DNA from: Escherichia phage vB_EcoM-Pr121LW
DNA length: 64,000 nt
Sequence record: MH752840.1
Strand: one strand, 5' to 3'
Shown in pieces: positions 1,398-45,026 of this stretch. The notes under the pieces were generated by a model. The model was not told the origin of the DNA. It made no database searches and saw nothing but the letters and a program-made list of their open reading frames with translations. Made by a program: the position numbers and the translations under genes. The first letter of the stretch is position 1; every line of letters starts with the position of its first letter.

Positions 1398-1613
1398 TCA
1401 GTCCAGCGGTTCATCCTCTACTTCACTGAAATCGATGTTCATGGTCTCCTCCCAACCATCAATCTCAGCACCAGAGTAGAGATCTTTAGGACTTACTCCC
1501 AAAGCCTCAGCAACAGAGTCCATATTTAACACCTCTGGCAGGTATGATTCATCGAATTCAAGGTAAATCAGGCCACGAGTGTTGTCAGCTCCACCAAATA
1601 TTTCTATCTTCAT
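1398..1613 (-). CDS. hypothetical small acidic protein (start taken at internal MKIEIF; track ORF extends to 1679)
   Basis: ORF on minus strand; MKIEI N-terminus and acidic C-terminus like neighbouring small-protein family. Confidence 0.35.
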   Translation of the reverse strand: MKIEIFGGADNTRGLIYLEFDESYLPEVLNMDSVAEALGVSPKDLYSGAEIDGWEETMNIDFSEVEDEPLD

Positions 1614-1733
1614 GAAATCTCCTCTGGAAATGAGAATGTGAACAGGGTTTATACGTCCCAATGCACAGGAATTATGCACGTTTGCCTCTTCAGGCCATGC
1701 TTTAGCATGAGGAACCTGTGTGGGCTCGGTGCT

Positions 1734-2039
1734 TCACAGTCTACCACCCCTGAACTCTTCGTGCTCAGGCATAATAGAGAACCAGATATCTACGATGTCT
1801 TCCCACGTTAAGTCATCAGCCTCAGGATCTACCTGGAGCGAAGATGGAGAATCTTCAGAATCGAAGTTTTCCTCTTTAACTGGCTCAGCCAAGGGACATA
1901 TAGTCACTCCTTTGGATGTCTCTTCAGATGCATGTGTGTTTATCATGTTCCACCCGTGAGTATTCCTGCAACAGCCGCTATGGACGTAATGATCATCAGG
2001 ATCACCACCAAAACTTCGGACAATGTTTTCATTGTGCAC
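1734..2039 (-). CDS. hypothetical protein
   Basis: ORF in minus-strand gene block; acidic composition. Confidence 0.25.
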   Translation of the reverse strand: MHNENIVRSFGGDPDDHYVHSGCCRNTHGWNMINTHASEETSKGVTICPLAEPVKEENFDSEDSPSSLQVDPEADDLTWEDIVDIWFSIMPEHEEFRGGRL

Positions 2040-2306
2040 TCCATATTCTCCAGACTATGTGTGGATACTATCATGAGAGAGGTAATGTGTCAACAGAAAT
2101 GCCGCGAGGGTTTGGTTAAAATCCGAGCGTATGGTGATTTTGGTCAAAACGGACGTGCGTTCTCGCTACGCTCGAAATATAGAGTTGTTAGTAGGAAGCT
2201 CTTAAACGCTCTGTAATGAGATTATCTGTCCAAGGTATGCAATCGTGCACTAAATAAAGAAAAGGACGCCACAGAGCGTCCTAGGTGTCTTAAATTTGAT
2301 ATTTTG

Positions 2307-2618
2307 CTATACCCATGAGGGCTTATCAAGGTTGGAGTAGCTGAAAGGTGTCAAAAGGTGATTGTCAAAATCTCTCAAACTATCCAAATCTTTTTCCTCG
2401 TCCTGACACCATCTGTGCCTACATTTATTGTTGTAGTGCATAGAATGCATAGCGTTCTGCAACTTAACAGGCACAAGTGACTCAGGGGTAGATAGTATTG
2501 TTGGGTATGCCAGAACCACCTCAAACAGTGGAAACACATCGAAACTGAAGTCTACCTCTGCAGAGGTTGATGGCATGTAGGAGTATTTAGCCGCCTTTGT
2601 AGACATAATCCACCTCAC
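2307..2618 (-). CDS. hypothetical protein
   Basis: ORF; stop overlaps start of upstream gene. Confidence 0.35.
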   Translation of the reverse strand: MRWIMSTKAAKYSYMPSTSAEVDFSFDVFPLFEVVLAYPTILSTPESLVPVKLQNAMHSMHYNNKCRHRWCQDEEKDLDSLRDFDNHLLTPFSYSNLDKPSWV

Positions 2619-2941
2619 ACAGGTTTGATAATACCTTTACCGAATAACTCTTCGTATCTAATCTTATCCGGATCCCACTCCTGGATAATTTCGAAGACAA
2701 TATCCAACCCTGGAATAATCACTTCTCCAGTGTCAAGTTTGGCAAGAACAAAACCGGAAGGTTGGATGGTTTCCCAGTTGCGACGATTGGAATAGAAGAC
2801 CTCGAAAATATCACCGACCTTGATCTGTTGATCAAGATGTTCAAGATTCTCTTTCATGTAGACGCAGCGGATTTTTCGTGCAGGCCATAGACCACCTGCA
2901 TCACGTTCATTCAATTCTTTTACAGTGATCGGTATACCCAT
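2615..2941 (-). CDS. hypothetical protein
   Basis: ORF with ATGA-type overlap to downstream gene. Confidence 0.4.
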   Translation of the reverse strand: MGIPITVKELNERDAGGLWPARKIRCVYMKENLEHLDQQIKVGDIFEVFYSNRRNWETIQPSGFVLAKLDTGEVIIPGLDIVFEIIQEWDPDKIRYEELFGKGIIKPV

Positions 2942-2961
2942 CTCAAATCTCCTTCATAGAT

Positions 2962-2990
2962 AGTAAAAAGAGGGGCCCAAGCCCCTCTCT
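2962..2990 (-). terminator. rho-independent terminator (minus strand)
   Basis: 8-bp stem AGAGGGGC/GCCCCTCT with 4-nt loop, followed on minus strand by TTTTTACT. Confidence 0.55.
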
Positions 2991-2996
2991 TTGTCA

Positions 2997-3302
2997 TTAT
3001 TCTACAGAGCGTTTGAACAGAATGTCTGCCTCGGACATGTGCTCAACCTCTTCTTCGATTTTAGCTCGACGTTTTTCAGCCTCATATCGAATATCGAACT
3101 CGGTAGCCACCAGAGATTTGATGAATTTAGGAGAATACAGATGATCCTGCTTCTCAACAAGAATGATATCCTTGATGGCATCTTTCAGATCTTTAATCTG
3201 AAGTTGGAGTTCCACCAGTTCTTCGATTGTTTTGCGAAGGCGATCACGCTCTGCAGTGTCAGAAGGAAGAGAGGTGAACAGTTCAACTTTAGATTTAGCC
3301 AT
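2997..3302 (-). CDS. hypothetical coiled-coil protein
   Basis: ORF; charged helical composition; followed by terminator. Confidence 0.4.
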   Translation of the reverse strand: MAKSKVELFTSLPSDTAERDRLRKTIEELVELQLQIKDLKDAIKDIILVEKQDHLYSPKFIKSLVATEFDIRYEAEKRRAKIEEEVEHMSEADILFKRSVE

Positions 3303-3330
3303 AGTAAGAGTCTCCTTATGTTGTTTTAAA

Positions 3331-3582
3331 TTAACGTTCTACAAAAATACCGTTCAGTTCAATAACCAGGAATTTCTGGTCTTCACTATCGTCTCGTGCC
3401 AGCACCTCACAGACGTATCGGTCATCCCCATCATCATCGCAGTCAAATACAAGACTGAGGACTTTATCATGATAAATCTTCGACACGACTGCCTCGTAAG
3501 TATTGCCGATTGTGAATCCAAGATAATCTCCAATGCATTTGACAACAACATGATCGCCAGCATTCAAGTCAATCTTCGTCAT
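3331..3582 (-). CDS. hypothetical protein (start at internal MTKIDL; track ORF to 3648)
   Basis: ORF; acidic tail DCDDDGDD. Confidence 0.35.
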   Translation of the reverse strand: MTKIDLNAGDHVVVKCIGDYLGFTIGNTYEAVVSKIYHDKVLSLVFDCDDDGDDRYVCEVLARDDSEDQKFLVIELNGIFVER

Positions 3583-3737
3583 TACTGCGCCCCTTTGGTA
3601 ATAATACTGTATGTAAAACTTTAACCAGAGATGTGAATAACGCCCCAAAACACACCGATAGCGCTAAAACAGACAAGGCCATCATTAAAGCTTCAGTAAA
3701 ATCAGTCACTCCTCACCTCTTGTTAGTCACTATACTG

Positions 3738-4001
3738 TCATTTATCCTTGCCGTCAAGAACTTTTTTAAATCTTTCAGGGATATCGCCTGTTCTTAGATA
3801 GCTCATGACCTCACAAGGTTCCCACTTGAATTTCTTACAAAGCAGGGCGGCTGAGATTGTTTCATTGCGAAAAGAAAGGATATTAATATCCCATTCTGAG
3901 AACCCCAACTTCCGAAGGGTAGCTACAGAAATCCTCACCGCAACCCAGCAGCAAAAACATGCAACAAACGCCACTGCTATAACCCATATCAGGATGTTCA
4001 T
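3738..4001 (-). CDS. hypothetical membrane protein (one N-terminal TM helix)
   Basis: Hydrophobic N-terminus ILIWVIAVAFVACFCCWVAV. Confidence 0.35.
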   Translation of the reverse strand: MNILIWVIAVAFVACFCCWVAVRISVATLRKLGFSEWDINILSFRNETISAALLCKKFKWEPCEVMSYLRTGDIPERFKKVLDGKDK

Positions 4002-4090
4002 ACAAGCACCTCACTGAAATACAAGACACAGTGTTAAGGTTACAGACCAGCAAATAATTAACAGTGCCGTTGCAACCTTGGCAAGATTTA

Positions 4091-4378
4091 TCATAGTGCC
4101 TCTAAGATTTCATATCCTTCGGGTCGGAATACAAGCCACTCCGTGGATCCGTTTGGTCGATACGCTTTATACAGAACAACCTGATCTCGGCACATGCACA
4201 TAGCTACATAGTTTTCATCCACACCTGCAGCCTGCATTGCAGCTTCTTCTCCGGCAACTGCTTTGCTTACAACCTCCTTAGTAGGCAGGTGTGCGATCAG
4301 CTCGTCACCATCATTAATTCCAAAATGGCTGAGTTCTCCATTGGTATCTTTAATCTTAATCTTAACCAGATCTTTCAT
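4091..4378 (-). CDS. small acidic protein, paralog family A
   Basis: MK(D/I)..K.K N-terminus, acidic C-terminus; ATGA overlap with neighbour. Confidence 0.45.
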   Translation of the reverse strand: MKDLVKIKIKDTNGELSHFGINDGDELIAHLPTKEVVSKAVAGEEAAMQAAGVDENYVAMCMCRDQVVLYKAYRPNGSTEWLVFRPEGYEILEAL

Positions 4379-4707
4379 TAGTCTTCCTCCAGGTTCAAAG
4401 GCCCTAAGATTTCATATGCCAGATTAGAAGTTACCAAAGGATCTTCTGCATCTTTAGTATTGTACCACCCATGAATAACCAGGGTCCCACTTTGTTTCAT
4501 GTCCAACTGGAACTCTTCTGCCGTTTCCTCATCCAGCTCCAAGATTTCCATAAGGTATTTGATGTTAGGAAGGTATGCAGCTGTTACAGTTCCCTCCACC
4601 AAACCTTCGGGCCAACCTACATCCGGATGACAAGTAGGAACCAAGTTGGTCAGCTTAATGGTGTACGCTTTTTCTGCACGAGCTTTCAGTAACTGGTCAA
4701 TCTTCAT
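4378..4707 (-). CDS. small acidic protein, paralog family A
   Basis: ORF, overlapping stop/start with neighbours. Confidence 0.45.
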   Translation of the reverse strand: MKIDQLLKARAEKAYTIKLTNLVPTCHPDVGWPEGLVEGTVTAAYLPNIKYLMEILELDEETAEEFQLDMKQSGTLVIHGWYNTKDAEDPLVTSNLAYEILGPLNLEED

Positions 4708-5057
4708 TATTCGTCCTCCTCTTCGGTGCCTGCTTCCAGTAATAAGTTAAGAATATCTTCTGCACAAGGCTCATAGAACTCTTGGCCTTCATTATCGATG
4801 ATTTTGTAGTCATCTCCACGAATAATCAGGGGATCACTCTCAAAATTATCAAGACCTTTAACAACGACAACACGATCGATTGCCATCATTGTAAGAACTT
4901 TATCGACATCTTCCTCTGCTACACCGTACTGCAGCAGAATGTCTTTGGTAGGAGGAACAGCATCCACCACAACACCGTTACCAAAACCTTCCGGAAGATT
5001 AGCTAAAATATCTTCCGGAACCACATTAACATCAAAACCAGTAATTTCTACTTTCAT
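4707..5057 (-). CDS. small acidic protein, paralog family A
   Basis: MKVEITGFD N-terminus, acidic tail EEEDE. Confidence 0.45.
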   Translation of the reverse strand: MKVEITGFDVNVVPEDILANLPEGFGNGVVVDAVPPTKDILLQYGVAEEDVDKVLTMMAIDRVVVVKGLDNFESDPLIIRGDDYKIIDNEGQEFYEPCAEDILNLLLEAGTEEEDE

Positions 5058-5318
5058 TTACAGCACCTCTTCGTCAACTACTTCATAAAAATGGCCTGGG
5101 ATTGCAATAGCGTTCTCACCTTCACCTACAAACACAGTTCCGTCAAGAATCAACATCATAAGAATTTCTGGAATATCCTCTTCCGGAACGTTGCCAAAAC
5201 CTTTAATCAGCTTGTAGGTTGGAAGATTTACCTCTAAGATGTCACCATCTTTAGAGCGGAAATCAACACCATCCTGAATCTCTGCCATTTCAAGGTTTTT
5301 CAGTTTAATCTTCATCAA
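5058..5318 (-). CDS. small acidic protein, paralog family A
   Basis: MMKIKLKN N-terminus, C-terminus VVDEEVL. Confidence 0.45.
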   Translation of the reverse strand: MMKIKLKNLEMAEIQDGVDFRSKDGDILEVNLPTYKLIKGFGNVPEEDIPEILMMLILDGTVFVGEGENAIAIPGHFYEVVDEEVL

Positions 5319-5394
5319 TCAGTCTCCTGTCTTGTTAAGATGAAGGTATTATTTCACACAGGGTTGGTGTTGTCAACACCTGTGTGCAAGAAAA

Positions 5395-5790
5395 TTACTG
5401 AAACAGTGCGGATAAATTACCTTCTGGTGGGAACTTATCTGCCAAAAACGGTGTTAGCACAGTAGCCTTCTGAAGATCTGGGGTCCACTCGTTGTTCAGA
5501 ACATCCCAGTAGTACGCAATGTTGCTGTGTGGGTGCCGCATTACGAACTTTTTCCCTTCGTAATCATCTGAAACCTCTACAGAAGAAATAACAACAGAAT
5601 CTTCAAGGGTTTCTTCATAGAAAGATCCGCCTTCAAATTTCCAACGAGATGCAAGAGCCCCTGCCTTGAACGCTGCAGATAAAGGACTGTCGGCAAGAAC
5701 ATACATTTCTTGCACTCTGTCGCTGCGATCTTTGCTTCTTACGTTGTATACAGTATCTGAGCTATACTCGACACGGTATAGGCTTATCAT
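5395..5790 (-). CDS. hypothetical protein, paralog of 7599-8012
   Basis: Shared HP.S...YW.....WTP motif with 7599-8012 product. Confidence 0.4.
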   Translation of the reverse strand: MISLYRVEYSSDTVYNVRSKDRSDRVQEMYVLADSPLSAAFKAGALASRWKFEGGSFYEETLEDSVVISSVEVSDDYEGKKFVMRHPHSNIAYYWDVLNNEWTPDLQKATVLTPFLADKFPPEGNLSALFQ

Positions 5791-6122
5791 TACCGCACCT
5801 CCTCAATAACTTCCACATCTGAACCAACAACAAATGCAAAAGGACAGGTTTCATGAAAGACATCCGGATCGCCGCCAAGCTTGCTAACAATTTCTCCACC
5901 ATTAATAAACACAAGCTCACCGATATTCATCAGATTGCTGAAATAGTATCCATAATGATTAAAGAATGCAGCGGGGTCAGGTAGACTAGTAGCCTCAAGC
6001 ACTACATCGGTTGAGGTTACTTTCTTATCATAACCTCTCGCCTTTTGAGATGCAAGATCTGCAGAATCCTCAGGCGACCGGAGATGCACAGGAATTGTTT
6101 CACCAATAAAGCGTACTTTCAT
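5790..6122 (-). CDS. small acidic protein, paralog family B (start at MKVRF; track ORF to 6149)
   Basis: MKVRF N-terminus and SDVEVIEE C-terminus resemble 8009-8480 paralogs. Confidence 0.4.
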   Translation of the reverse strand: MKVRFIGETIPVHLRSPEDSADLASQKARGYDKKVTSTDVVLEATSLPDPAAFFNHYGYYFSNLMNIGELVFINGGEIVSKLGGDPDVFHETCPFAFVVGSDVEVIEEVR

Positions 6123-6126
6123 ATTA

Positions 6127-6390
6127 TCACCCAACAACCATAGCTTCAAAAGGAGTCATGAACGAATAAACGGCATCATCATCTGCTTCAGGGAATGCTC
6201 CCAAAGACTTCATATCTGAGCCCTTGACAAATACAAGGTTTTGATCAAAGGCTTCTTGGGGGTCAATCCGATACATATTTCGTAAAATATCGCTTACCTC
6301 CTCATCAAGAGGTGAGTATGCTGTGCACGTTTTTCCGATCAAGCTTTGAGAATCAGGGTATCCACCTGAAGTTTTAAAATAAACAATCAT
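6127..6390 (-). CDS. hypothetical protein
   Basis: ORF in operon. Confidence 0.35.
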   Translation of the reverse strand: MIVYFKTSGGYPDSQSLIGKTCTAYSPLDEEVSDILRNMYRIDPQEAFDQNLVFVKGSDMKSLGAFPEADDDAVYSFMTPFEAMVVG

Positions 6391-6481
6391 ATAGTATCAC
6401 CTCTGGTAAGAGATTGGGACTCCTTTCCCACAAATAATTACAAATCTTCCTTAGCGAGGAAGTATGCTAATCCAAGCAGGA

Positions 6482-6751
6482 TTATTCCTCTACAATCTCA
6501 TACACATCAGGAGTTACAATCAACTCTTCTCCGTTACCCGGTGCAACAAACACCACCAAGCCTTCAGGTGTGTGCTTTTTAGCCATCTCGATAACATCTT
6601 CTCGCAGAGCTGGCTCCATCAGATCAAAACCTTCACCCAGTGCATCACGAACTACCTTCATGTAGTCCACTGGTTGTGCTTCAACGATCATGCCTTCAAC
6701 CAGTCCACAGTTTTTGTCTGCCAGCTCAGTTTTGAATAATTTAATTTTCAT
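6482..6751 (-). CDS. small acidic protein, paralog family A
   Basis: MKIKLFK N-terminus, YEIVEE C-terminus. Confidence 0.45.
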   Translation of the reverse strand: MKIKLFKTELADKNCGLVEGMIVEAQPVDYMKVVRDALGEGFDLMEPALREDVIEMAKKHTPEGLVVFVAPGNGEELIVTPDVYEIVEE

Positions 6752-6888
6752 TTAGAGGTCTCCTCAATTATTTGATATTAATAGCCGTAACCTAACACAT
6801 TAACTACAACTGCGATTGCAAACATAATTTCAAAGCATGCAATCTCTACATTTGGGACTAATTTCTTAATCACGCCCATTATAGCACC

Positions 6889-7206
6889 TCATTCTCCAAA
6901 GTCAATCTTTACTTTGCCTTTCCCCTTACCTTTCTTTCCACCGCATTTAGCCAGCTGACGTGCTGCAACATCTACCATACGGTCAGTTGCCTCGTAAGCA
7001 TCGCTACCTTTAGCTTTGGCGATAACTTCTTTCCCAGAATTGTCAAAAATAAAAGCCATAACTTCCTGGTGATCATTTTCAACTTTTACACTCACACGTG
7101 CATAGTTGGCAGATGGGTGCAAACGCTCCAGTTTGGACATTTTGTGGGAAATGAAAGACACCATACCTTCAGTGATCTCTACGTTGCCAGTGATTTCAAT
7201 TTGCAT
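6889..7206 (-). CDS. hpf: ribosome hibernation promoting factor / RaiA (ribosomal S30AE family) homolog
   Basis: MQIEITGNVEITEGM... N-terminus and spacing of KLE, VKVE, AKG.D.Y.A.D, DV.ARQL match bacterial HPF/YfiA as recalled; lysine/glycine-rich tail. Confidence 0.65.
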   Translation of the reverse strand: MQIEITGNVEITEGMVSFISHKMSKLERLHPSANYARVSVKVENDHQEVMAFIFDNSGKEVIAKAKGSDAYEATDRMVDVAARQLAKCGGKKGKGKGKVKIDFGE

Positions 7207-7290
7207 AACGTGTTCCTTTTAAGGAAGAGGGAATAACTATCTCTCTTTGAAAACAATGATACTAAATCTGAAGCGTTGTGTCAACAGTTT

Positions 7291-7581
7291 TTACAGCTTG
7301 TTGTCGATAGTTTTTAAAATATCCACTGCAAGATCTGCCATTTTACGAACATACTCTGCAAACTCAACAGGATCCTTGATCAATGAGTTCACAGGGTCAT
7401 ACCCTAAAGCGTTTAAAATGGCTACAGCATCCACAACCTTCTCATCGTTTGCGAAGATCTCACCGTCAAACTTGTAGGTCCATTTTGAGTCAATCTTGGC
7501 ATGGCAGGATTGGTCCATGCTTATTACACCATCTTTTTTAGACGATTCTGTGTTATCAGTATCCAAAACTAAATCCATCAT
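7291..7581 (-). CDS. hypothetical protein
   Basis: ORF. Confidence 0.35.
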   Translation of the reverse strand: MMDLVLDTDNTESSKKDGVISMDQSCHAKIDSKWTYKFDGEIFANDEKVVDAVAILNALGYDPVNSLIKDPVEFAEYVRKMADLAVDILKTIDNKL

Positions 7582-7598
7582 GTAAGTACTCCACTATT

Positions 7599-8012
7599 TC
7601 AGCTTATCTTTTCTTCAACAACCCCATAGCTTGGGGCAGAGTCAAGAGCTTTCTGGTTCAAAAGTGGTGTAGCAGAATCTGCAAACGGTGTCCAGGTTTT
7701 TGTTCTGGCATTCCAGTAATGCTTCACTCTGGAATCAGGATGCACTATAACAAAAACTTTTTCACTTGTCAACACATTAATTTCTTCCACACCCTTACTG
7801 ACAATTTCTCCGTCATAGCCCCCAGTCTGGTATCCTTCGTACCAGGTTCTTGCATAGGCATATCCGGCCTGCCAGCATGCAGCCTCTTCAGAGGTGGAGA
7901 CTACGTAGAAGTCTTTCTCAAATTCCGGGATACGCCCTTGCTTTACGCTCCAAGCTCCGCGAATTTTCATTGTAACTTTGAACAGTTTATTTTTCACAAC
8001 AGTCCCCATCAC
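7599..8012 (-). CDS. hypothetical protein, paralog of 5395-5790
   Basis: Shared IVHPDSRVKHYWNARTKTWTP motif. Confidence 0.4.
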   Translation of the reverse strand: MMGTVVKNKLFKVTMKIRGAWSVKQGRIPEFEKDFYVVSTSEEAACWQAGYAYARTWYEGYQTGGYDGEIVSKGVEEINVLTSEKVFVIVHPDSRVKHYWNARTKTWTPFADSATPLLNQKALDSAPSYGVVEEKIS

Positions 8013-8263
8013 AGCTCTAAAATATCTGCATCTGACCCTGCCCCAAAGGCATAATACGAGTCCTCTCCGAAATAATATTCCGGGGCACCAGCCGCTATTA
8101 GGTCTGATCCCAAGATGAAAACCACATTGTGGCCTACATAGCTGTGATTTTGCCGCACAGGATCATCCCACGGCAACTCTTCGAAGTATACAGCAGGTAC
8201 GACCTTTCCCTTCAGGAAGGATTGTCCCAAGTAGACGTTAGAGTCAAGAATTTTAACTTTCAT
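8009..8263 (-). CDS. small protein, paralog family B (DLIAAGA motif)
   Basis: MKVKILDS...DLIAAGA shared with 8253-8480 and 11907-12140. Confidence 0.45.
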   Translation of the reverse strand: MKVKILDSNVYLGQSFLKGKVVPAVYFEELPWDDPVRQNHSYVGHNVVFILGSDLIAAGAPEYYFGEDSYYAFGAGSDADILEL

Positions 8264-8480
8264 GATCGTCCTCCACTACCTCCACATCCTCCCCTAGGGC
8301 AAAGTTGTAGGTCCACTGACTGTCAAAGCATTCCTGAGATGCACCAGCGGCAATAAGATCTGCCCCTTTTATTTTTAAAAGGTCAGGGTAATCTTCGTTA
8401 GGGACAGCAGTAAACACTTTCCCTACTAAAAGCTCCTGACCAATATAGAAGCTTGAATCTAAAACTCTAACTTTCATCAA
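8253..8480 (-). CDS. small protein, paralog family B (DLIAAGA motif)
   Basis: MMKVRVLDS...ADLIAAGA. Confidence 0.45.
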   Translation of the reverse strand: MMKVRVLDSSFYIGQELLVGKVFTAVPNEDYPDLLKIKGADLIAAGASQECFDSQWTYNFALGEDVEVVEDDHES

Positions 8481-8764
8481 CGGTCTCCATCAGGTGGTTG
8501 TGGGACGTAAACACTGTTACGAATATCGTCCGCAGTATAGTAATAAGTGTCTCCAACCCTATCTCTAGCTGCAATGTACTCTGCTATACCAATAAGTGCC
8601 ATTGATTTGGTGGCGTATCTTCCCAACTCGTTAGCTCCCCAGTAGAATTTAGACCAATAGGGAATAAGACCGAACAAATATACCTTTTGACGAACTTCCC
8701 AGTAAGTGCCTTTCCCGACAAGTTTAAACTCGACTTCACCACTGTTAATCTTTTTCATTATCAA
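8477..8764 (-). CDS. hypothetical protein
   Basis: ORF with 4-nt overlaps. Confidence 0.35.
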   Translation of the reverse strand: MIMKKINSGEVEFKLVGKGTYWEVRQKVYLFGLIPYWSKFYWGANELGRYATKSMALIGIAEYIAARDRVGDTYYYTADDIRNSVYVPQPPDGDR

Positions 8765-9156
8765 TCTCCCTCCACCGTGGTCGGATTGTCAGTAAGAAAT
8801 TGAGCATTAGCTGGAGGAACACCTGACATTTTCCACACAACCATAAGTTTGTAACCAGGCACTCTATTAAGTGCAGATCGAGTAGAGTTTGTGCACGTAT
8901 ACTTTCGCTTTCCAAACCCGTTCTCCATCATAATCCAGTACCCAGTATCTTTGTCACCAGGTATTGGTAGACCACCTTCATCAACCCACTGAATGGACCA
9001 CGGCACGATGGCTACAGCTTTATATTTAAACTTTTTAAACCACTGAAAAAGTTTCATAATCCAGCCTCGCATAGACATAATCACTATAAACAGGCAAACA
9101 ATGAATCCGAATGCCACGCCACCCATAAACGTTAATATTGATGCAATCATAGTCAA
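8761..9156 (-). CDS. hypothetical membrane-anchored protein
   Basis: N-terminal hydrophobic helix IASILTFMGGVAFGFIVCLFIVIM. Confidence 0.35.
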   Translation of the reverse strand: MTMIASILTFMGGVAFGFIVCLFIVIMSMRGWIMKLFQWFKKFKYKAVAIVPWSIQWVDEGGLPIPGDKDTGYWIMMENGFGKRKYTCTNSTRSALNRVPGYKLMVVWKMSGVPPANAQFLTDNPTTVEGD

Positions 9157-9338
9157 TCAGCCTCGCTTGGCAACTCTTCTACCTTAACATGCCGAAAAGT
9201 GTTACCGTAATGGTTGATCCATGACATCAGCTCGCTTTCTTGCTCTTCCTCTGGAATGCACTCTCGAATGCTGACAAGTTTTAAGAAAACCCAATCGCAA
9301 TCTGCACCCATTCTACCAGATAGACAATAGTGCTTCAT
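9153..9338 (-). CDS. hypothetical small protein
   Basis: ORF, overlaps neighbour. Confidence 0.3.
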   Translation of the reverse strand: MKHYCLSGRMGADCDWVFLKLVSIRECIPEEEQESELMSWINHYGNTFRHVKVEELPSEAD

Positions 9339-9357
9339 AAAAACCCTCTACCTTGGT

Positions 9358-9558
9358 TTAGAATACTGCCTCTTTTAATGATCCAAGGAGCAGTAGGTGT
9401 GAAATCTGATCCACATTCATGGTAGATTCAATCTCCTCTTTTTTGAAAGGTTCTCGGCAAAACAGTACTACATTTGGGTTTTCGCTACGCACTATATAAT
9501 ACAGATCGTTCAAATCATTCTCATAGTAGGTATTAAATTTAAGAATTTTGTCACTCAT
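9358..9558 (-). CDS. hypothetical small protein
   Basis: ORF. Confidence 0.3.
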   Translation of the reverse strand: MSDKILKFNTYYENDLNDLYYIVRSENPNVVLFCREPFKKEEIESTMNVDQISHLLLLGSLKEAVF

Positions 9559-9842
9559 TTTCTAATCCTCTTCTTAGATTTTTGGGGAGAAACGCTTTCT
9601 GCAATACGAGACAAACGTTCTTCTGAAGCCTTTCCTATTCCAGGTTTTTTGAGTGGATTATCTTTATGACCACAATCCAATTGGATATTGGACACCTCTC
9701 CCACTTTGTAAGCCAATTCTAGCAAAAGGTTGTCGTCCTTGTCAAATGTTTTTACGATAAATTTTTTATCGTCCTCCTGAACCTCATATCTGGTACCTGC
9801 AGTATACAGCATGGTGCCATCAGTATAGGATATCCAGATCAT
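9555..9842 (-). CDS. hypothetical protein
   Basis: ORF. Confidence 0.35.
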   Translation of the reverse strand: MIWISYTDGTMLYTAGTRYEVQEDDKKFIVKTFDKDDNLLLELAYKVGEVSNIQLDCGHKDNPLKKPGIGKASEERLSRIAESVSPQKSKKRIRK

Positions 9843-10186
9843 TGAGCCTCCTTCTGCTGTAACAGCATTAACTCTTTGTTAGAGATCTTTACTGCTGTTT
9901 TTATTGTTCCATCTTCACGGAACCACGACCAGAACTCTACAGTGTCACCACTATCAAGCAAAGCATGCCCATGGTAAAAATCTTTGTCCTTAGACAGTTT
10001 CTCATCTATATCTGCATCAACACATTCGTGATCCATAGCGTTTTGCCTGAACGCATCGGTTATGCCAATACACGCCTTGCTCTCAAGACTGGTATATCCG
10101 ATATCTTTTAATTCAGTTTCCCAAACCCAGTACCCTATAAAAGCCACAACAGCTACCCACATTAATATCGATTTAATCTTTGGCAT
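9839..10186 (-). CDS. hypothetical membrane-anchored protein
   Basis: N-terminal TM/signal segment ILMWVAVVAFIGYWVW. Confidence 0.35.
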   Translation of the reverse strand: MPKIKSILMWVAVVAFIGYWVWETELKDIGYTSLESKACIGITDAFRQNAMDHECVDADIDEKLSKDKDFYHGHALLDSGDTVEFWSWFREDGTIKTAVKISNKELMLLQQKEAQ

Positions 10187-10246
10187 TCTCTCTACCTCTT
10201 TCTTAGTTTATTTAGTTATGGCACATCCTTTGTGCCTTATTGTGCA

Positions 10247-10708
10247 CTACTTAAACAACAGTTCAAGATAGTGCAAAATTAACAGAAGTTGAATTACGCC
10301 CAGCACAACGGCAAGTATGTTAATCTTAGAATCAAAAAACTTCTTAACTTTTACCCTAAAAGGTTCCTTAATGTCCTTTACGATCCTATCTATAGATGAC
10401 CTCATATCTCTGATTACCATCCTGAACATTAAAGACGGATGCTCCCTCTCTGTAACGGAATCGAAAACATACTCTCTTCGGTCATAAGGGCCGCCAGCTC
10501 TGCGTATTAACCTCTCCACAGATACCTCGAACGTCACACCTGTAACGTAATCATCTATAACAAGTAGTGACGGGTCTTTACTGTCAAGAGGCACCAAAGT
10601 TATCTTTCCAGATTTTGTTAAAATTTCTCCTTTTTCAAGCAAGGTATACCAATGCTCTCTGCCAAGGCTATTGAGGCACGTTTTTACATATTTAACAAAC
10701 ATCGTCAC
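10247..10708 (-). CDS. hypothetical protein (C-terminal TM helix)
   Basis: ORF; hydrophobic C-terminus. Confidence 0.35.
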   Translation of the reverse strand: MTMFVKYVKTCLNSLGREHWYTLLEKGEILTKSGKITLVPLDSKDPSLLVIDDYVTGVTFEVSVERLIRRAGGPYDRREYVFDSVTEREHPSLMFRMVIRDMRSSIDRIVKDIKEPFRVKVKKFFDSKINILAVVLGVIQLLLILHYLELLFK

Positions 10709-10908
10709 CCCTCATCGCACGTCTGATATAACCACTCTATAAAATCTTGATACCATTCACCCTCTGAGCGCTCCGTAGGCCAATAATCTTCACCCTCTCG
10801 TGCATTAAAATCTGAGTATTCAACTTTCCACTCCTTTACCAGCTCGTGGAGAAGGTTTTCAGCCTGCTCTAAAGATTTATTTTTTACCATTGCTGTCTCC
10901 TTTTTCAA
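10705..10908 (-). CDS. hypothetical small protein
   Basis: ORF. Confidence 0.3.
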   Translation of the reverse strand: MKKETAMVKNKSLEQAENLLHELVKEWKVEYSDFNAREGEDYWPTERSEGEWYQDFIEWLYQTCDEG

Positions 10909-11109
10909 GATAGTTATACATCAGAACTGCACCACCTAAGATGGTTACCAGTAACAATACCCCAGATAGCATTTCAATAAACATGGCTTGAAACACCGGA
11001 AGATCTCCCTAAATTAATGCACCATTTTAAATACATGCTCTTTTCCCATAAAGGTGCCCGGCTAAGATCTGCGTAGAACGCAATCTCTTTAAGAACAGTA
11101 TAAACAGTT

Positions 11110-11346
11110 TTAGGTGCAGTCTCCATTCCTGCTCTCCTTTTTCTCCTTACGGGTATTCTTGTAGTAATCCACCAGGCACATTATCACTATGAAGATAACA
11201 ACAGGCCAAAAAGGTGCAGCAGTGATGATAGTGATAAAATCATCAAACTTCACCCTTCGTGTGGACACGATGCATACACCTGCCAAGAATACTGCCGTTA
11301 TAACGGCTATTACCAGGTAGCCTATTAGCACAACATCTATACTCAT
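11110..11346 (-). CDS. small membrane protein with two predicted TM helices
   Basis: Two hydrophobic segments then a basic tail. Confidence 0.35.
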   Translation of the reverse strand: MSIDVVLIGYLVIAVITAVFLAGVCIVSTRRVKFDDFITIITAAPFWPVVIFIVIMCLVDYYKNTRKEKKESRNGDCT

Positions 11347-11376
11347 TAGTCCTCCCTTTGTAGGTTAAATTATATA

Positions 11377-11910
11377 CTACAGATGGTTGCTGATGGTGTC
11401 AAGAAAATTATCTCGTTCTTTCTTGGAGTTTTCACTGGTGTAGTTGAAAAACATATCTAGAATAACCTTATTGATATATTCCAGCTCCTCTGTGTTCAGG
11501 TACTTAGCAGGATCTACAATGACATCCCAAGTCTCATACAGACCACACTCATGATACCCCCAACGCTGCTCAATTGTCAAGCTGATCGGCAAAGCTTTAC
11601 CGTCACAAACAACCTTCCATCTGCAAATGCTGGTATCTGGGCGTACCTGTGCACGGTATACCTGCACAAAATCCAATTTGAATTTGAGATACTCGTCATA
11701 CAATTTAAGTACAAAGCTCTCGATTTGTGGAGACACTTTTGCAGCAAACTGTGCGTATTTGTACTTGCACTGGATAATCTTTCTGCGTTTCGCAGTTAAA
11801 TTTTTTGCAGCCAGTTGTTCTTCAGTATATCTCCATCTACGATCAACAAACGCAACAGGGTCTTTGTCCCCATAGAGGTCTTCCCAGTTAATCAGAAGCA
11901 TACCTGTCAC
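11377..11910 (-). CDS. hypothetical protein
   Basis: ORF. Confidence 0.4.
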   Translation of the reverse strand: MTGMLLINWEDLYGDKDPVAFVDRRWRYTEEQLAAKNLTAKRRKIIQCKYKYAQFAAKVSPQIESFVLKLYDEYLKFKLDFVQVYRAQVRPDTSICRWKVVCDGKALPISLTIEQRWGYHECGLYETWDVIVDPAKYLNTEELEYINKVILDMFFNYTSENSKKERDNFLDTISNHL

Positions 11911-12140
11911 TCCTCCACAACTTCAAGGCCTTTACCGCCTCGCTCTGGCAGATTACTTAAAGATAGGTAATACATATAATCAGGAGAGATCCTGCCAGAC
12001 TCTGCACCTGCAGCTAGTAAATCCTTCCCTTTAACCAGGACAACATTATCGTTTGCAGATAGTCGTTTTGCTTCCACAATTTTACCAACGCAGTCAACCA
12101 AGGAAGGGTACCCTAAATCTGTAAGAAATTTAACTTTCAT
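11907..12140 (-). CDS. small protein, paralog family B (start at MKVKF; track ORF to 12161)
   Basis: MKVKFLTD...DLLAAGA. Confidence 0.4.
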   Translation of the reverse strand: MKVKFLTDLGYPSLVDCVGKIVEAKRLSANDNVVLVKGKDLLAAGAESGRISPDYMYYLSLSNLPERGGKGLEVVEE

Positions 12141-12179
12141 GCTACCTCCTACTTCTACCATCCCTGGTAAGATAAATTA

Positions 12180-42236: not shown

Positions 42237-42311
42237 GCCCTGTTAGCTTAGTGGATAAAGCAGCGGCCTTCTAAGCCGTTGACACTGGTTCGAGTCCAGT
42301 ACGGGGTGCCA
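42237..42311 (+). tRNA. tRNA-Arg (anticodon TCT)
   Basis: Manual cloverleaf: 7-bp acceptor stem, D-stem GCTT/AAGC, anticodon loop CTTCTAA, T-loop TTCGAGT, encoded CCA. Confidence 0.75.
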
Positions 42312-42442
42312 AGTTCTTTTTAATGTAGCTTACTTTAGCAGAGTAAATCTTCGGCAAGTGGCGGTAACCACTTTTACCGATACCTCATAGTTAGTGGTGA
42401 GAACACTAGCTATTTTAAAAAGAATTTAAATATTAGTATTTA

Positions 42443-42530
42443 GGTGAGTTAATTCCGTAGGGGTAGCGGGGCAGACTGTAAATCTGTTATCATTGCGATT
42501 CGGGTGGTTCGACTCCATCACTCACCACCA
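42443..42530 (+). tRNA. tRNA-Tyr (anticodon GTA), long variable arm
   Basis: Perfect 7-bp acceptor stem GGTGAGT/ACTCACC, anticodon arm GCAGA-CTGTAAA-TCTGT, T-loop TTCGACT, CCA; 88 nt. Confidence 0.7.
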
Positions 42531-42644
42531 AATTTATATTTTTAAATGCATAAATTATACAGATAATGGCATTGATATTTATCGTCGTTTATACTAGTCA
42601 CTAACTGCTCGAAAATCAGTGTCATTATCAGTATTGTTTATAAA

Positions 42645-42735
42645 AGAGGGTAGGGAGCAATGGTGCTCAAGCGGTCTTGAAAACCGTCCCGTTGAGGATG
42701 ACTCGATGATGGTTCGATTCCATTACCCTCTGCCA
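42645..42735 (+). tRNA. tRNA-Ser (anticodon TGA), long variable arm
   Basis: Perfect 7-bp acceptor stem AGAGGGT/ACCCTCT, anticodon loop CTTGAAA, T-loop TTCGATT, CCA; 91 nt. Confidence 0.7.
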
Positions 42736-42833
42736 TATTGTTGACCTTGTAATTAAGCGAAAGCCGGAAGCAGAACCGGATTATCAAATGTTACAGTCGT
42801 CATCGCCGACTAGCAACATTGTCAACATACTGA

Positions 42834-42932
42834 GCTAGGTAAGCCCTTTGGCAAGGGCGAGGATTTTTAATCCTGAAAATAGACGAGGTAGTCGTTGAAT
42901 ACATAGGTGGTTCGATTCCACCACCTAGCACC
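42834..42932 (+). tRNA. atypical tRNA-like gene (anticodon loop TTTTTAA, possibly Lys-TTT), ~30-nt extra region, no full CCA
   Basis: Acceptor GCTAGGT/ACCTAGC, D-arm GCCC-TTTGGCAA-GGGC, T-arm GGTGG-TTCGATT-CCACC are clean; anticodon stem and variable region are irregular. Confidence 0.35.
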
Positions 42933-42937
42933 TTTTT

Positions 42938-43013
42938 GCTGATGTAGCACAATTGGTAGTGCAATTGATTTGTAATCAATAGGTTGCAGGTTCAAGTCCT
43001 GCCATCAGCACCA
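42938..43013 (+). tRNA. tRNA-Thr (anticodon TGT)
   Basis: Acceptor GCTGATG/CATCAGC, D-stem GCAC/GTGC, anticodon arm ATTGA-TTTGTAA-TCAAT, T-loop TTCAAGT, CCA. Confidence 0.8.
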
Positions 43014-43014
43014 T

Positions 43015-43089
43015 GGCCCTGTAGCTGGAAGGTTCAAGCAAGCGACTCATAATCGCCAGACGGTGGTTCAATTCCACCCAGGGCCACCA
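43015..43089 (+). tRNA. tRNA-Met or tRNA-Ile2 (anticodon CAT), elongator type
   Basis: Acceptor GGCCCTG/CAGGGCC with G1-C72 pair, anticodon loop CTCATAA, T-arm GGTGG-TTCAATT-CCACC, CCA. Confidence 0.7.
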
Positions 43090-43100
43090 AATAGTAAATA

Positions 43101-43177
43101 CTCCGCGTAGCTCAGCTTGGTAGAGCGCCTGATTTGGGATCAGGAGGTCGAGTGTTCGAATCACTCCGTGGAGACCA
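43101..43177 (+). tRNA. tRNA-Pro (anticodon TGG)
   Basis: C1-G72 acceptor pair as in bacterial tRNA-Pro, D-stem GCTC/GAGC, anticodon arm CCTGA-TTTGGGA-TCAGG, T-loop TTCGAAT, CCA. Confidence 0.8.
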
Positions 43178-44281: not shown

Positions 44282-44706
44282 TGTCTAAGATTTACGGACC
44301 GTGTTCTGAAAAGCAGAAGATGATCCTCGAAAACGATGCAGATATTTTGGTAATCGGCGGTGCCGCAGGGTCTGGCAAGTCGTTCCTCTTGCAGTTGATG
44401 CCGCTTAAAATTATCGATGACCCCCACAGCTCTGTGGTTATGTTCCGAAGAACAACCCCACAGTTGGAAGGTGAGGGTGGACTATGGCCTAAAGCAGTAG
44501 CTATTTATAGCGATCTGCCTGAAAACATTAAGCCAAAGTTCAGAGAGAAGGATCATAAGTTCATTTTTCCACGGTTTGATCCGAACACTGGCAAGTGGGA
44601 TAGAAGCAAAAAGGGAGCTGTTGTAAAATACTGCCACATGGAGTATGTACAAGATAAGCTTAACCATCAAGGGCTTGAGTACACCATGGTTTGCTTCGAT
44701 GAGGGT
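44281..44706 (+). CDS. terminase large subunit, exon 1 (ATPase N-terminal part)
   Basis: Walker A GGAAGSGKS and Walker B MVCFDE; frame closes with TAA right at the intron start. Confidence 0.7.
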
Positions 44707-45026
44707 TAATTTGTAGCTCTCGTAAAACCTCCCTAATTGCGGGGAAATCTTTACTATTAATACCACCAACCTGTCATGGTAACATGATAGAGGCTTCGAA
44801 GAGAGATCGAAGGTATGGTAACAGTGTGTTAATTTAGATAATCCGCAGCGAAGCATCCGAGAGGATGAACGTTCAACGACTAGTCGAAAGACGTAGAATC
44901 AAGCGATTCGAAACGGGAGGGTAAGCGGTTGTTGTCGCTTATAAGATATAGTCTGGTCTGCATGGAGACATGCAGCTGCCTGAAAAATGGCGGGGCAAGA
45001 CTAGCGACCTTGCCCGAACATAGACG
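44707..45026 (+). ncRNA. group I self-splicing intron (ORF-less) in the terminase large subunit gene; boundaries approximate
   Basis: Conserved elements in order: P AATTGCGGGGAAA (~44737), Q AATCCGCAGC (~44842), R GTTCAACGACTAGTC (~44870), S AAGATATAGTC (~44940); intron begins GGT|TAATT like T4 td; no ORF inside. Confidence 0.65.

Follow-up and report, generated by a model that had tools for sequence, protein, structure and literature searches.

The early modules of phages T4, T5 (pre-early), T7 (class I), and SPO1 carry out host takeover; they are built of dense, short, coupled, and mostly orphan genes behind host-type promoters, and many of these genes are non-essential in the laboratory. 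The block of small genes analyzed here occupies positions 1398-12161 of a 64,000-nucleotide stretch of DNA (the window) from Escherichia phage vB_EcoM-Pr121LW (sequence record MH752840.1). Like those modules, it contains short, translationally coupled, mostly orphan genes located behind host-type promoters; however, no homology to characterized members of the modules was found, and the phenotype associated with the block is specific to the host strain. The anti-restriction proteins Ocr and ArdA are likewise small, very acidic, and encoded in non-structural regions; the proteins studied here differ from them in predicted fold, in belonging to a phage group sensitive to restriction-modification (RM), and in the unchanged RM profile of a phage that carries a deletion in the block. 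Twelve genes of the block group into three paralog families (A and B with five genes each, C with two; Table 1), which our sequence comparisons confirm as real. Such families are familiar in kind as phage accessory small-protein families; these three are undescribed beyond anonymous PHROG clusters.

The earlier note on this DNA, made from its letters alone, had proposed three recurring paralog groups, and all the open reading frames (ORFs) that it named were found in place on the minus strand. We aligned the 28 ORFs of the block with one another (378 pairs) using the Smith-Waterman algorithm, with scores calibrated against 200 composition-preserving shuffles. The 15 top-ranking pairs all fall inside the three proposed groups. 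The shuffle P values are 2e-15 for 8009/8253, 9e-11 for 5395/7599, 4e-8 for 8253/11907, and 1.5e-6 for 5790/8253 (genes are designated by their first coordinate); within family A they are 3e-5 for 4707/5058 and 7e-5 for 4091/4707. After Bonferroni correction, seven pairs are clearly significant, and 5790/8009 lies right at the threshold; BLASTP gave concordant results.

Hits of a profile to its own training sequences are circular; therefore, we built hidden Markov models (HMMs) leaving out one orthogroup at a time and used them to search the window's complete set of 453 six-frame ORFs. Each omitted member ranked right behind the training members and above every ORF outside its family. The E-values of the omitted members range from 2e-9 to 6e-3 for A and from 2e-19 to 7e-5 for B, and the best non-family ORF has an E-value of at least 0.03 (for A, 0.027 or worse). 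A profile built from 59 distant relatives of B, all from outside Vequintavirus, retrieved precisely the five B genes of the window (E = 4.5e-24 to 2.6e-7), with the next ORF at 0.3. Profile-profile comparison with hhalign of 34 orthogroup alignments (561 pairs) returned the same partition, the 12 best pairs all being within families. The proposal of three groups is thus borne out by the shuffles, the leave-one-out HMMs, and the profile-profile comparison. By these measures homology within B and within C is beyond doubt, and A passes the leave-one-out test as one homologous family with 6482-6751 as a borderline case. No relationship between C and A, or between C and B, was detected in sequence comparison.

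The membership and description of the families had to be revised in several places. The B genes originally listed are retained, and one that had been missed, 6127-6390, is added as the fifth. The four-gene A cluster (4091-5318) stands, whereas 6482-6751 is only a probable A member and the weakest link: its full-length hhalign P is ~2e-3 to 4091 and 5058, and its leave-one-out E-value is 6.2e-3, yet it is the top ORF outside the training set. The motif shared by the C pair is real, with its spacing corrected to HP.S....YW......WTP. The description as acidic fits 11 of the 12 proteins (isoelectric point, pI, 4.05-5.10) and fails for the product of 7599-8012 (pI 7.8). Start and stop codons, said to overlap throughout, do so at 10 of 33 junctions and are 0-5 nt apart at five more, whereas gaps of 8-360 nt separate the rest. 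The '..EE' C-terminus regarded as a signature of family A is partly a by-product of ribosome-binding sites (RBSs): in six members it coincides with the Shine-Dalgarno sequence that serves the following gene. At the 3' ends of 4378-4707, 4707-5057, 5058-5318, 5790-6122, 8253-8480, and 11907-12140, GAGGAGG-type sequences encode the '..EE' termini and at the same time provide the Shine-Dalgarno sequence for the translationally coupled gene that follows; RBSs embedded in this way can produce a family signature at the sequence level.

The PHROGs database already joins three B genes (phrog_5009) and both C genes (phrog_7379), and it assigns 5790-6122 to phrog_13661 and 6127-6390 to phrog_13920 rather than to phrog_5009. 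It keeps the five A genes apart (phrog_12794, phrog_12457, phrog_12155, phrog_12359, and phrog_11868), whereas the present analysis links them. The window proteins align end to end with their own PHROG profiles (E = 1e-31 to 1e-76), all of which are labeled 'unknown function'.

Structure prediction with AlphaFold2 (AF2) gave an SH3-like barrel for the B protein 8253-8480, with a mean predicted local distance difference test score (pLDDT) of 91.7 and a predicted template modeling score of 0.79. The A protein 5058-5318 was modeled as an SH3-like core in which a helical insertion separates strands 2 and 3 (pLDDT 85.6), and the mixed alignment of A sequences gave one confident fold. The models contain a five-stranded barrel that can be superposed on known members of the SH3-like small beta-barrel class (SH3, KOW/Spt5-NusG, PsaE, and the integrase C-terminal domain). 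Families A and B are therefore predicted to be standalone modules of this class, ~75-116 aa long and mostly strongly acidic. The conserved B motif, G-x-[DE]-L-I-x-x-G-A, is located at a strand-to-helix transition. A comparison with predicted viral structures linked the B model to many uncharacterized phage proteins of 60-90 aa, with template modeling (TM) scores of up to 0.86; one match, at TM 0.81, is an 87-aa protein of Vequintavirus CM1, the size expected of the 6127-6390 ortholog. The Pfam SH3 and KOW models matched none of the window members at E<=0.1 and none of 45 members of the wider B family at E<=0.01, and sequence searches of the families against Pfam, NCBIfam, and PDB gave no usable match and no enzyme signature. 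Weak matches to LRAT, RluB, fructose-bisphosphatase, and lactate dehydrogenase were far below the cut-offs and were rejected as chance.

Families A and B share a layout of an MK[VI]K strand, a G.[IV]VEA strand, a VVFVKG strand, and an acidic end. Their profile-profile similarity is not significant (hhalign probability 2-8%, P = 0.004-0.009); it is local and extends over no more than 26-27 N-terminal columns, which correspond to the N-terminal hairpin. Common ancestry of A and B is only suggested by these sequences.

The window belongs to a Vequintavirus (rV5-like coliphage). Over the 11.2-kb region that contains the block, identity is 95-96% to Escherichia phages PDX, FFH2, and V5/rV5 and to ~120 other Vequintavirus genomes. 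The counterpart of this region in rV5 comprises ORF126-163, with every gene on the minus strand and nearly all annotated as 'hypothetical protein'. In the rV5 genome paper, genes 82-163 are described as a single long non-structural transcription unit with sigma-70-type promoters dispersed within it; that paper does not mention paralogs or duplications. The paralog block is the small-gene tail of this rV5-type non-structural unit. Two of its promoters are listed in Table 1; the one at 7284-7256 may also serve 6482-6751 and the B-B-C trio downstream (6127-6390, 5790-6122, and 5395-5790).

Transposon-insertion sequencing (Tn-seq) has been performed on the Vequintavirus Bas54 (MaxBurger, MZ501093) in the HIDEN-SEQ preprint (10.1101/2025.11.20.689424), the source of all Bas54 insertion and knockout data given here. 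We mapped the Bas54 genes onto the window by BLASTP; the family members are 92-100% identical, and the four conditionally required ones are 97.6-100% identical. On E. coli K-12 all 12 orthologs are classed as 'non-essential' or 'intermediate'. The resampling table compares K-12 BW25113 with a uropathogenic isolate, '311'. On the latter, zero insertions remain in any gene of the trio (log2 fold changes of -7.16, -6.17, and -6.77 for bas54_0152, bas54_0151, and bas54_0150, respectively; q=0 for each). The second C gene, bas54_0157, is also depleted (log2 fold change -2.14, q=0), and the gene downstream of it is unaffected. The change for bas54_0153 (-2.78) is not significant, and the A cluster (0146-0149) and the B genes 0158, 0159, and 0166 are unaffected on '311'. 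Because bas54_0150 comes last in the coupled trio, disruption of this gene itself must be consequential. The authors of the preprint argue that polar effects are not widespread, and they do not discuss 0150-0152 and 0157. In Data S6 (Supplementary file 9) of the preprint, the sheet 'resampling_K-12_vs_CFE303' has a command line naming '311', and the next Bas54 table repeats its numbers exactly; the CFE303 comparison seems either to be absent from the file or to carry a wrong label.

The same dataset contains a validated neighbor. Insertions in bas54_0140 (ortholog of 2307-2618) have a log2 fold change of -5.48, and the phage from which the gene was knocked out is sensitive to DS-28, which is predicted to be a defence system of E. 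coli CFE311. This protein has no homology to A, B, or C in pairwise and profile comparisons. It resembles the family members in gene block, size class, lack of annotation, dispensability on K-12, and requirement on CFE311 (which four family members share in Tn-seq); it differs in that its role was validated with a knockout and a cloned defence system. Nothing on the family genes appears in two papers that refer to Vequintavirinae in connection with defence or transcriptomes, and no Vequintavirus transcriptome turned up.

All 12 genes are under purifying selection. Across five Vequintavirus genomes, their ratios of nonsynonymous to synonymous substitution rates (dN/dS) are 0.04-0.19, compared to 0.03-0.05 for the nearby HPF, methyltransferase, and ClpP genes. 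Contigs of a divergent sister lineage, in which the orthologs are 29-76% identical, have the same synteny with five A genes, five B genes, and one recognizable C gene; the duplications are thus old and each copy has been retained, unlike the copies of a fast-turnover array. Two natural deletions are known in the block. Phage Bas59 (MZ501061) lacks 3.7 kb equivalent to window positions ~7599-11346, a segment of ~13 small genes that is otherwise intact in 116 of 118 records; the deletion eliminates two genes of family B and the greater part of one gene of family C. The smaller deletion in Bas54, equivalent to ~8761-10702, takes no family member; it includes the ortholog of gp128 (annotated 'virion structural protein'), and this 'structural' gene is therefore dispensable.

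A tblastn search of 50,697 phage genomes detected homologs of A, B, and C in Vequintavirus only, and searches of 5.8 billion proteins with A and C yielded almost only Vequintavirus-like contigs. With the B profile, a HMMER search of 1.84 billion representatives gave 82 clusters at E<=1e-3. These relatives are nearly all standalone proteins of 63-90 aa with the consensus MKVKLL..GGY.G...GKVVEA...I.G.ELI.AGA...F...Y.F...EVIEE. A few are tandem fusions of two or three domains, and one is fused to DUF3310, the sole partner with a Pfam name; the longer relatives contain no fused A or C domains. The top match of the search, a 2833-aa adhesin with immunoglobulin-like repeats (P0102), is spurious, as its 18 matching stretches all correspond to profile positions 15-43 only. 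The three B relatives whose context was examined are in phages or a prophage, and where the context is readable they occupy accessory slots in unrelated phages. In a lambdoid E. coli prophage, the segment from antiterminator Q to the holin contains a string of ~20 small hypothetical genes, and one of these is the B homolog, found in 35 of 5,426 complete genomes; its neighbors carry only hypothetical annotations and are unrelated to the window ORFs. B genes also occur as an overlapping tandem pair at 3990-4518 of a small contig from an unrelated phage with an SU10-type capsid and an SPP1-type portal, where they are the first genes of an operon running into a helix-turn-helix regulator. We regard this pair as an independent tandem duplication of the same module.

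We favor the reading, at a probability of roughly 0.55, that the families are old, individually retained, non-enzymatic small binding proteins acting as accessory host-specific infection or counter-defence factors. Tandem duplications within the accessory tail of the rV5-like non-structural arm would have given rise to the twelve genes, which would be expressed from sigma-70 promoters by the host RNA polymerase. Each protein may bind a different host or defence component and would be dispensable on permissive laboratory hosts and required on particular natural strains; the B-B-C trio and 7599-8012, the genes for which there is experimental support, would act as conditionally essential host-range or counter-defence factors. 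In favor of this reading are the paralogy and the constraint on all 12 genes, the lack of an enzyme signature, dispensability on K-12 together with the normal plating of Bas59, the requirement of four orthologs on '311', the anti-defence neighbor, the promoters, and the accessory slots of the B relatives. Paralogy, coding constraint, the predicted fold, dispensability on K-12, and the conditional requirement of four orthologs are established; the binding mechanism, the targets, and the early timing are inferred.

Several observations weigh against this reading. No phenotype is seen in the conditional screen for eight of the 12 genes, the whole four-gene A cluster included. The signal of the trio could in part be polarity onto 5395-5790, or it could reflect a non-immune need, such as metabolism or the receptor or capsule context. 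The mislabeled sheet and the duplicate table effectively leave one unreplicated preprint comparison. Phage Bas59, without three family members, shows no loss of resistance against 11 defence systems. Early timing is deduced from promoters and gene position. Slow purifying evolution with fixed copy number is also atypical of arms-race genes.

The earlier note had taken the duplicated genes as typical of host-takeover or anti-defence arsenals. The position in a non-structural arm with sigma-70 promoters, the anti-defence neighbor 2307-2618, and the depletion of four orthologs on a uropathogenic isolate agree with that interpretation, whereas the A cluster and three B genes without phenotype, the age and stability of the families, their non-essentiality on K-12, and the late/moron position (from Q to the holin) of a B homolog in a lambdoid prophage do not. 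General host takeover, in which small early proteins would halt transcription, translation, replication, or division of the host whichever strain is infected, could draw on the same arm and promoters, on the small acidic products, on the ribosome hibernation factor homolog among the paralogs (6889-7206), and on the slight under-saturation of the orthologs of 5790, 6127, and 6482 for insertions on K-12 (0.69-0.73, 'intermediate'). However, disruption of all 12 genes is tolerated on K-12, which argues against it; the loss of three members leaves the plating of Bas59 normal, and the strong phenotype is limited to a particular host strain. We consider general takeover unlikely. A further proposal extends the favored reading: A and B would be one ancient SH3-like adaptor superfamily (ten per genome) that forms a modular counter-defence toolkit with C, the trio and the back-up C gene 7599-8012 would constitute a multi-component inhibitor of a uropathogenic E. 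coli immune system, and the ~80 B relatives would be a widespread anti-defence family. This extension is doubtful.

The strong acidity of the proteins (net charge ~-2.5 to -22, with the pI range given above) would suit DNA mimics of the Ocr or ArdA type that block RM enzymes; however, most other proteins of the block are just as acidic, and the predicted folds are compact SH3-like barrels rather than elongated, DNA-shaped structures. In addition, Vequintavirinae proved exceptionally sensitive to RM systems in the BASEL study, and in its raw data Bas59 behaves like Bas57 and Bas58 on all 11 defence systems tested, RM included, and on the host panel. The missing members are thus not needed against those systems, which disfavors Ocr-like anti-restriction, and we regard DNA mimicry as very improbable. 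Similarity without homology, through composition, the MK[IV]K start, and RBS-forced GAG-GAG codons, would concern mainly family A and especially 6482-6751. The spread of A over five PHROGs, within-A BLAST E-values of only 1e-3 to 0.7, the overlap of the acidic C-terminus with the next Shine-Dalgarno sequence in six members, and the P of ~2e-3 that links 6482-6751 are in line with it. Against it, A pairs remain Bonferroni-significant under composition-preserving shuffles, the leave-one-out HMMs place every A member above 448 other ORFs, within-A hhalign P values of 3e-8 and 6e-8 extend over 69-83 aligned columns and thus beyond the termini, and the mixed A alignment gives a single confident AF2 fold; chance resemblance is hardly credible. 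A role within the phage itself, be it in the virion, in assembly, or as injected internal proteins or chaperones, is suggested by the annotation of 10247-10708 (rV5 gp128) in the block as a virion structural protein from proteomics and by the frequency of SH3-like barrels among phage structural proteins. Plaque formation on K-12 needs none of the 12 genes, no family member is annotated as structural in the compared records, and the B homologs of unrelated phages are in non-structural slots; a virion or assembly role is therefore quite unlikely.

Table 1. Family members, the validated neighbor gene, and two promoters in the window
Feature	Coordinates	Strand	Product or sequence; rV5 and Bas54 counterparts	Supporting comparisons and context
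A member	4091..4378	minus	95 aa; bas54_0146	leave-one-out E=2.5e-5; hhalign P=7e-5 to 4707
A member	4378..4707	minus	109 aa; rV5 gp147, bas54_0147	leave-one-out E=3.4e-4; hhalign P=6e-8 to 4707
A member	4707..5057	minus	116 aa, net charge ~-22; rV5 gp146, bas54_0148	leave-one-out E=2.3e-9; hhalign P=3e-8 to 5058
A member	5058..5318	minus	85 aa from ATG at 5315; rV5 gp145, bas54_0149	first gene behind sigma-70-like promoter; phrog_12359; leave-one-out E=7.6e-8; dN/dS 0.19
Probable A member, weakest link	6482..6751	minus	89 aa; rV5 gp141, bas54_0153	
Divergent B member, middle of trio	5790..6122	minus	110 aa, ORF extends to 6149; rV5 gp143, bas54_0151	long insert between strands; leave-one-out E=9e-7; external-profile E=2.6e-7; no phrog_5009 match at E<=0.01, phrog_13661 only, B membership via independent HMMs
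B member, first of B-B-C trio	6127..6390	minus	87 aa, degenerate motif GSDMKSLGA; rV5 gp142, bas54_0152	phrog_5009 E=1.2e-4 (weak); leave-one-out E=7e-5; external-profile E=1e-7
B member	8009..8263	minus	84 aa, motif GSDLIAAGA; rV5 gp136, bas54_0158	phrog_5009 E=1.6e-31; external-profile E=2.9e-17
B member	8253..8480	minus	74 aa from ATG at 8477, motif GADLIAAGA; rV5 gp135, bas54_0159	phrog_5009 E=8e-37; external-profile E=4.5e-24
B member	11907..12140	minus	77 aa, motif GKDLLAAGA, ORF extends to 12161; rV5 gp122, bas54_0166	phrog_5009 E=7e-36; external-profile E=9e-19; 44-49% identity to E. coli prophage protein P0085
C member, last of B-B-C trio	5395..5790	minus	131 aa, HP.S....YW......WTP; rV5 gp144, bas54_0150	1-nt start/stop overlap with 5790-6122; phrog_7379 E=4.5e-66; 28% identity to 7599-8012, BLASTP E=9e-10
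C member	7599..8012	minus	132-137 aa, pI 7.8; rV5 gp137, bas54_0157	phrog_7379 E=2.5e-73; mostly deleted in phage Bas59
Context gene, not a family member	2307..2618	minus	ortholog of bas54_0140	98% identity over 99 aa
Sigma-70-type promoter	5348..5376	minus	TTGACA-17-AATAAT, extended -10; 11/12 consensus match	directly upstream of four-gene A cluster; annotated P150 of rV5 (NC_011041)
Sigma-70-type promoter	7256..7284	minus	11/12 consensus match	directly upstream of HPF gene; annotated P144 of rV5 (NC_011041)

Existing annotations of the family genes contain some inconsistencies. The rV5 reference record (NC_011041) splits the ortholog of 4091-4378 into the overlapping short ORFs gp148/gp149 (5719-5989 of the compared rV5 stretch); we attribute this split to a frameshift or sequencing error, as the other genomes examined all have one 95-aa gene. 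The S127 BCL3 ortholog of 6482-6751 (JDPAHGNP_00107, 7306-7575) is labeled 'sigma 54 modulation factor', and several records carry two such labels in the block. As an HPF/RaiA candidate 6482-6751 was rejected, having no Pfam match, PF02482 included; the true HPF homolog is 6889-7206, and the label is probably a carry-over from this adjoining gene. The likeness of gp137 to a Listeria phage A118 protein claimed in the rV5 record was not reproduced at E<=1.

The HPF/RaiA homolog at 6889-7206 (minus strand) is set among the paralogs, and its sister-lineage ortholog matches Pfam Ribosomal_S30AE (PF02482); the Bas54 ortholog is non-essential in Tn-seq and unaffected on the clinical isolate. In the sister lineage the family C gene is separated from the A cluster by an extra 98-aa gene with a match to Pfam PF27050 (Phage_P22_Y8K6; 11389-11685 and 11092-11388 of the respective contigs); this extra gene is absent from the window.

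The block is bounded by a gene-free region of ~2.5 kb, of which positions 1-1397 of the window form a part; this region separates the divergently transcribed arms of rV5-like phages. Positions 1-1397 are 90-99% conserved in 121 phage records and have no match in Rfam; small direct repeats are present at 727-835, and a sigma-70 promoter close to the consensus lies at 1270-1243 (minus strand). The intergenic region of Bas54 tolerates zero transposon insertions (10.1101/2025.11.20.689424), which suggests an essential non-coding function, for example an origin, a packaging site, or an RNA. Elsewhere in the window, a group I catalytic intron is located at 44697-44975 (plus strand; Rfam RF00028, 84 bits, full-length model match). 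A tRNA cluster at 42237-43177 (plus strand) encodes Arg-TCT, Ser-TGA, Thr-TGT, Met-CAT, and Pro-TGG. Two further elements are a tRNA-like one at 42834-42932, for which the anticodon call is aberrant and four bases long, and an extra Rfam tRNA match at 42443-42527 that is not among the ARAGORN calls.

Phages related to rV5 are among the commonest coliphage isolates and are candidates for use in therapy and in food safety; annotation is lacking for ~60% of their genes. In this analysis 12 orphan genes are reduced to three families, two of which gain a confident predicted fold. The link to an existing transposon dataset singles out four genes that are required on a clinical isolate and not on K-12. 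If the B-B-C trio turns out to act in counter-defence as a module, membership in family B would point to candidate anti-defence genes in many other phages and prophages.

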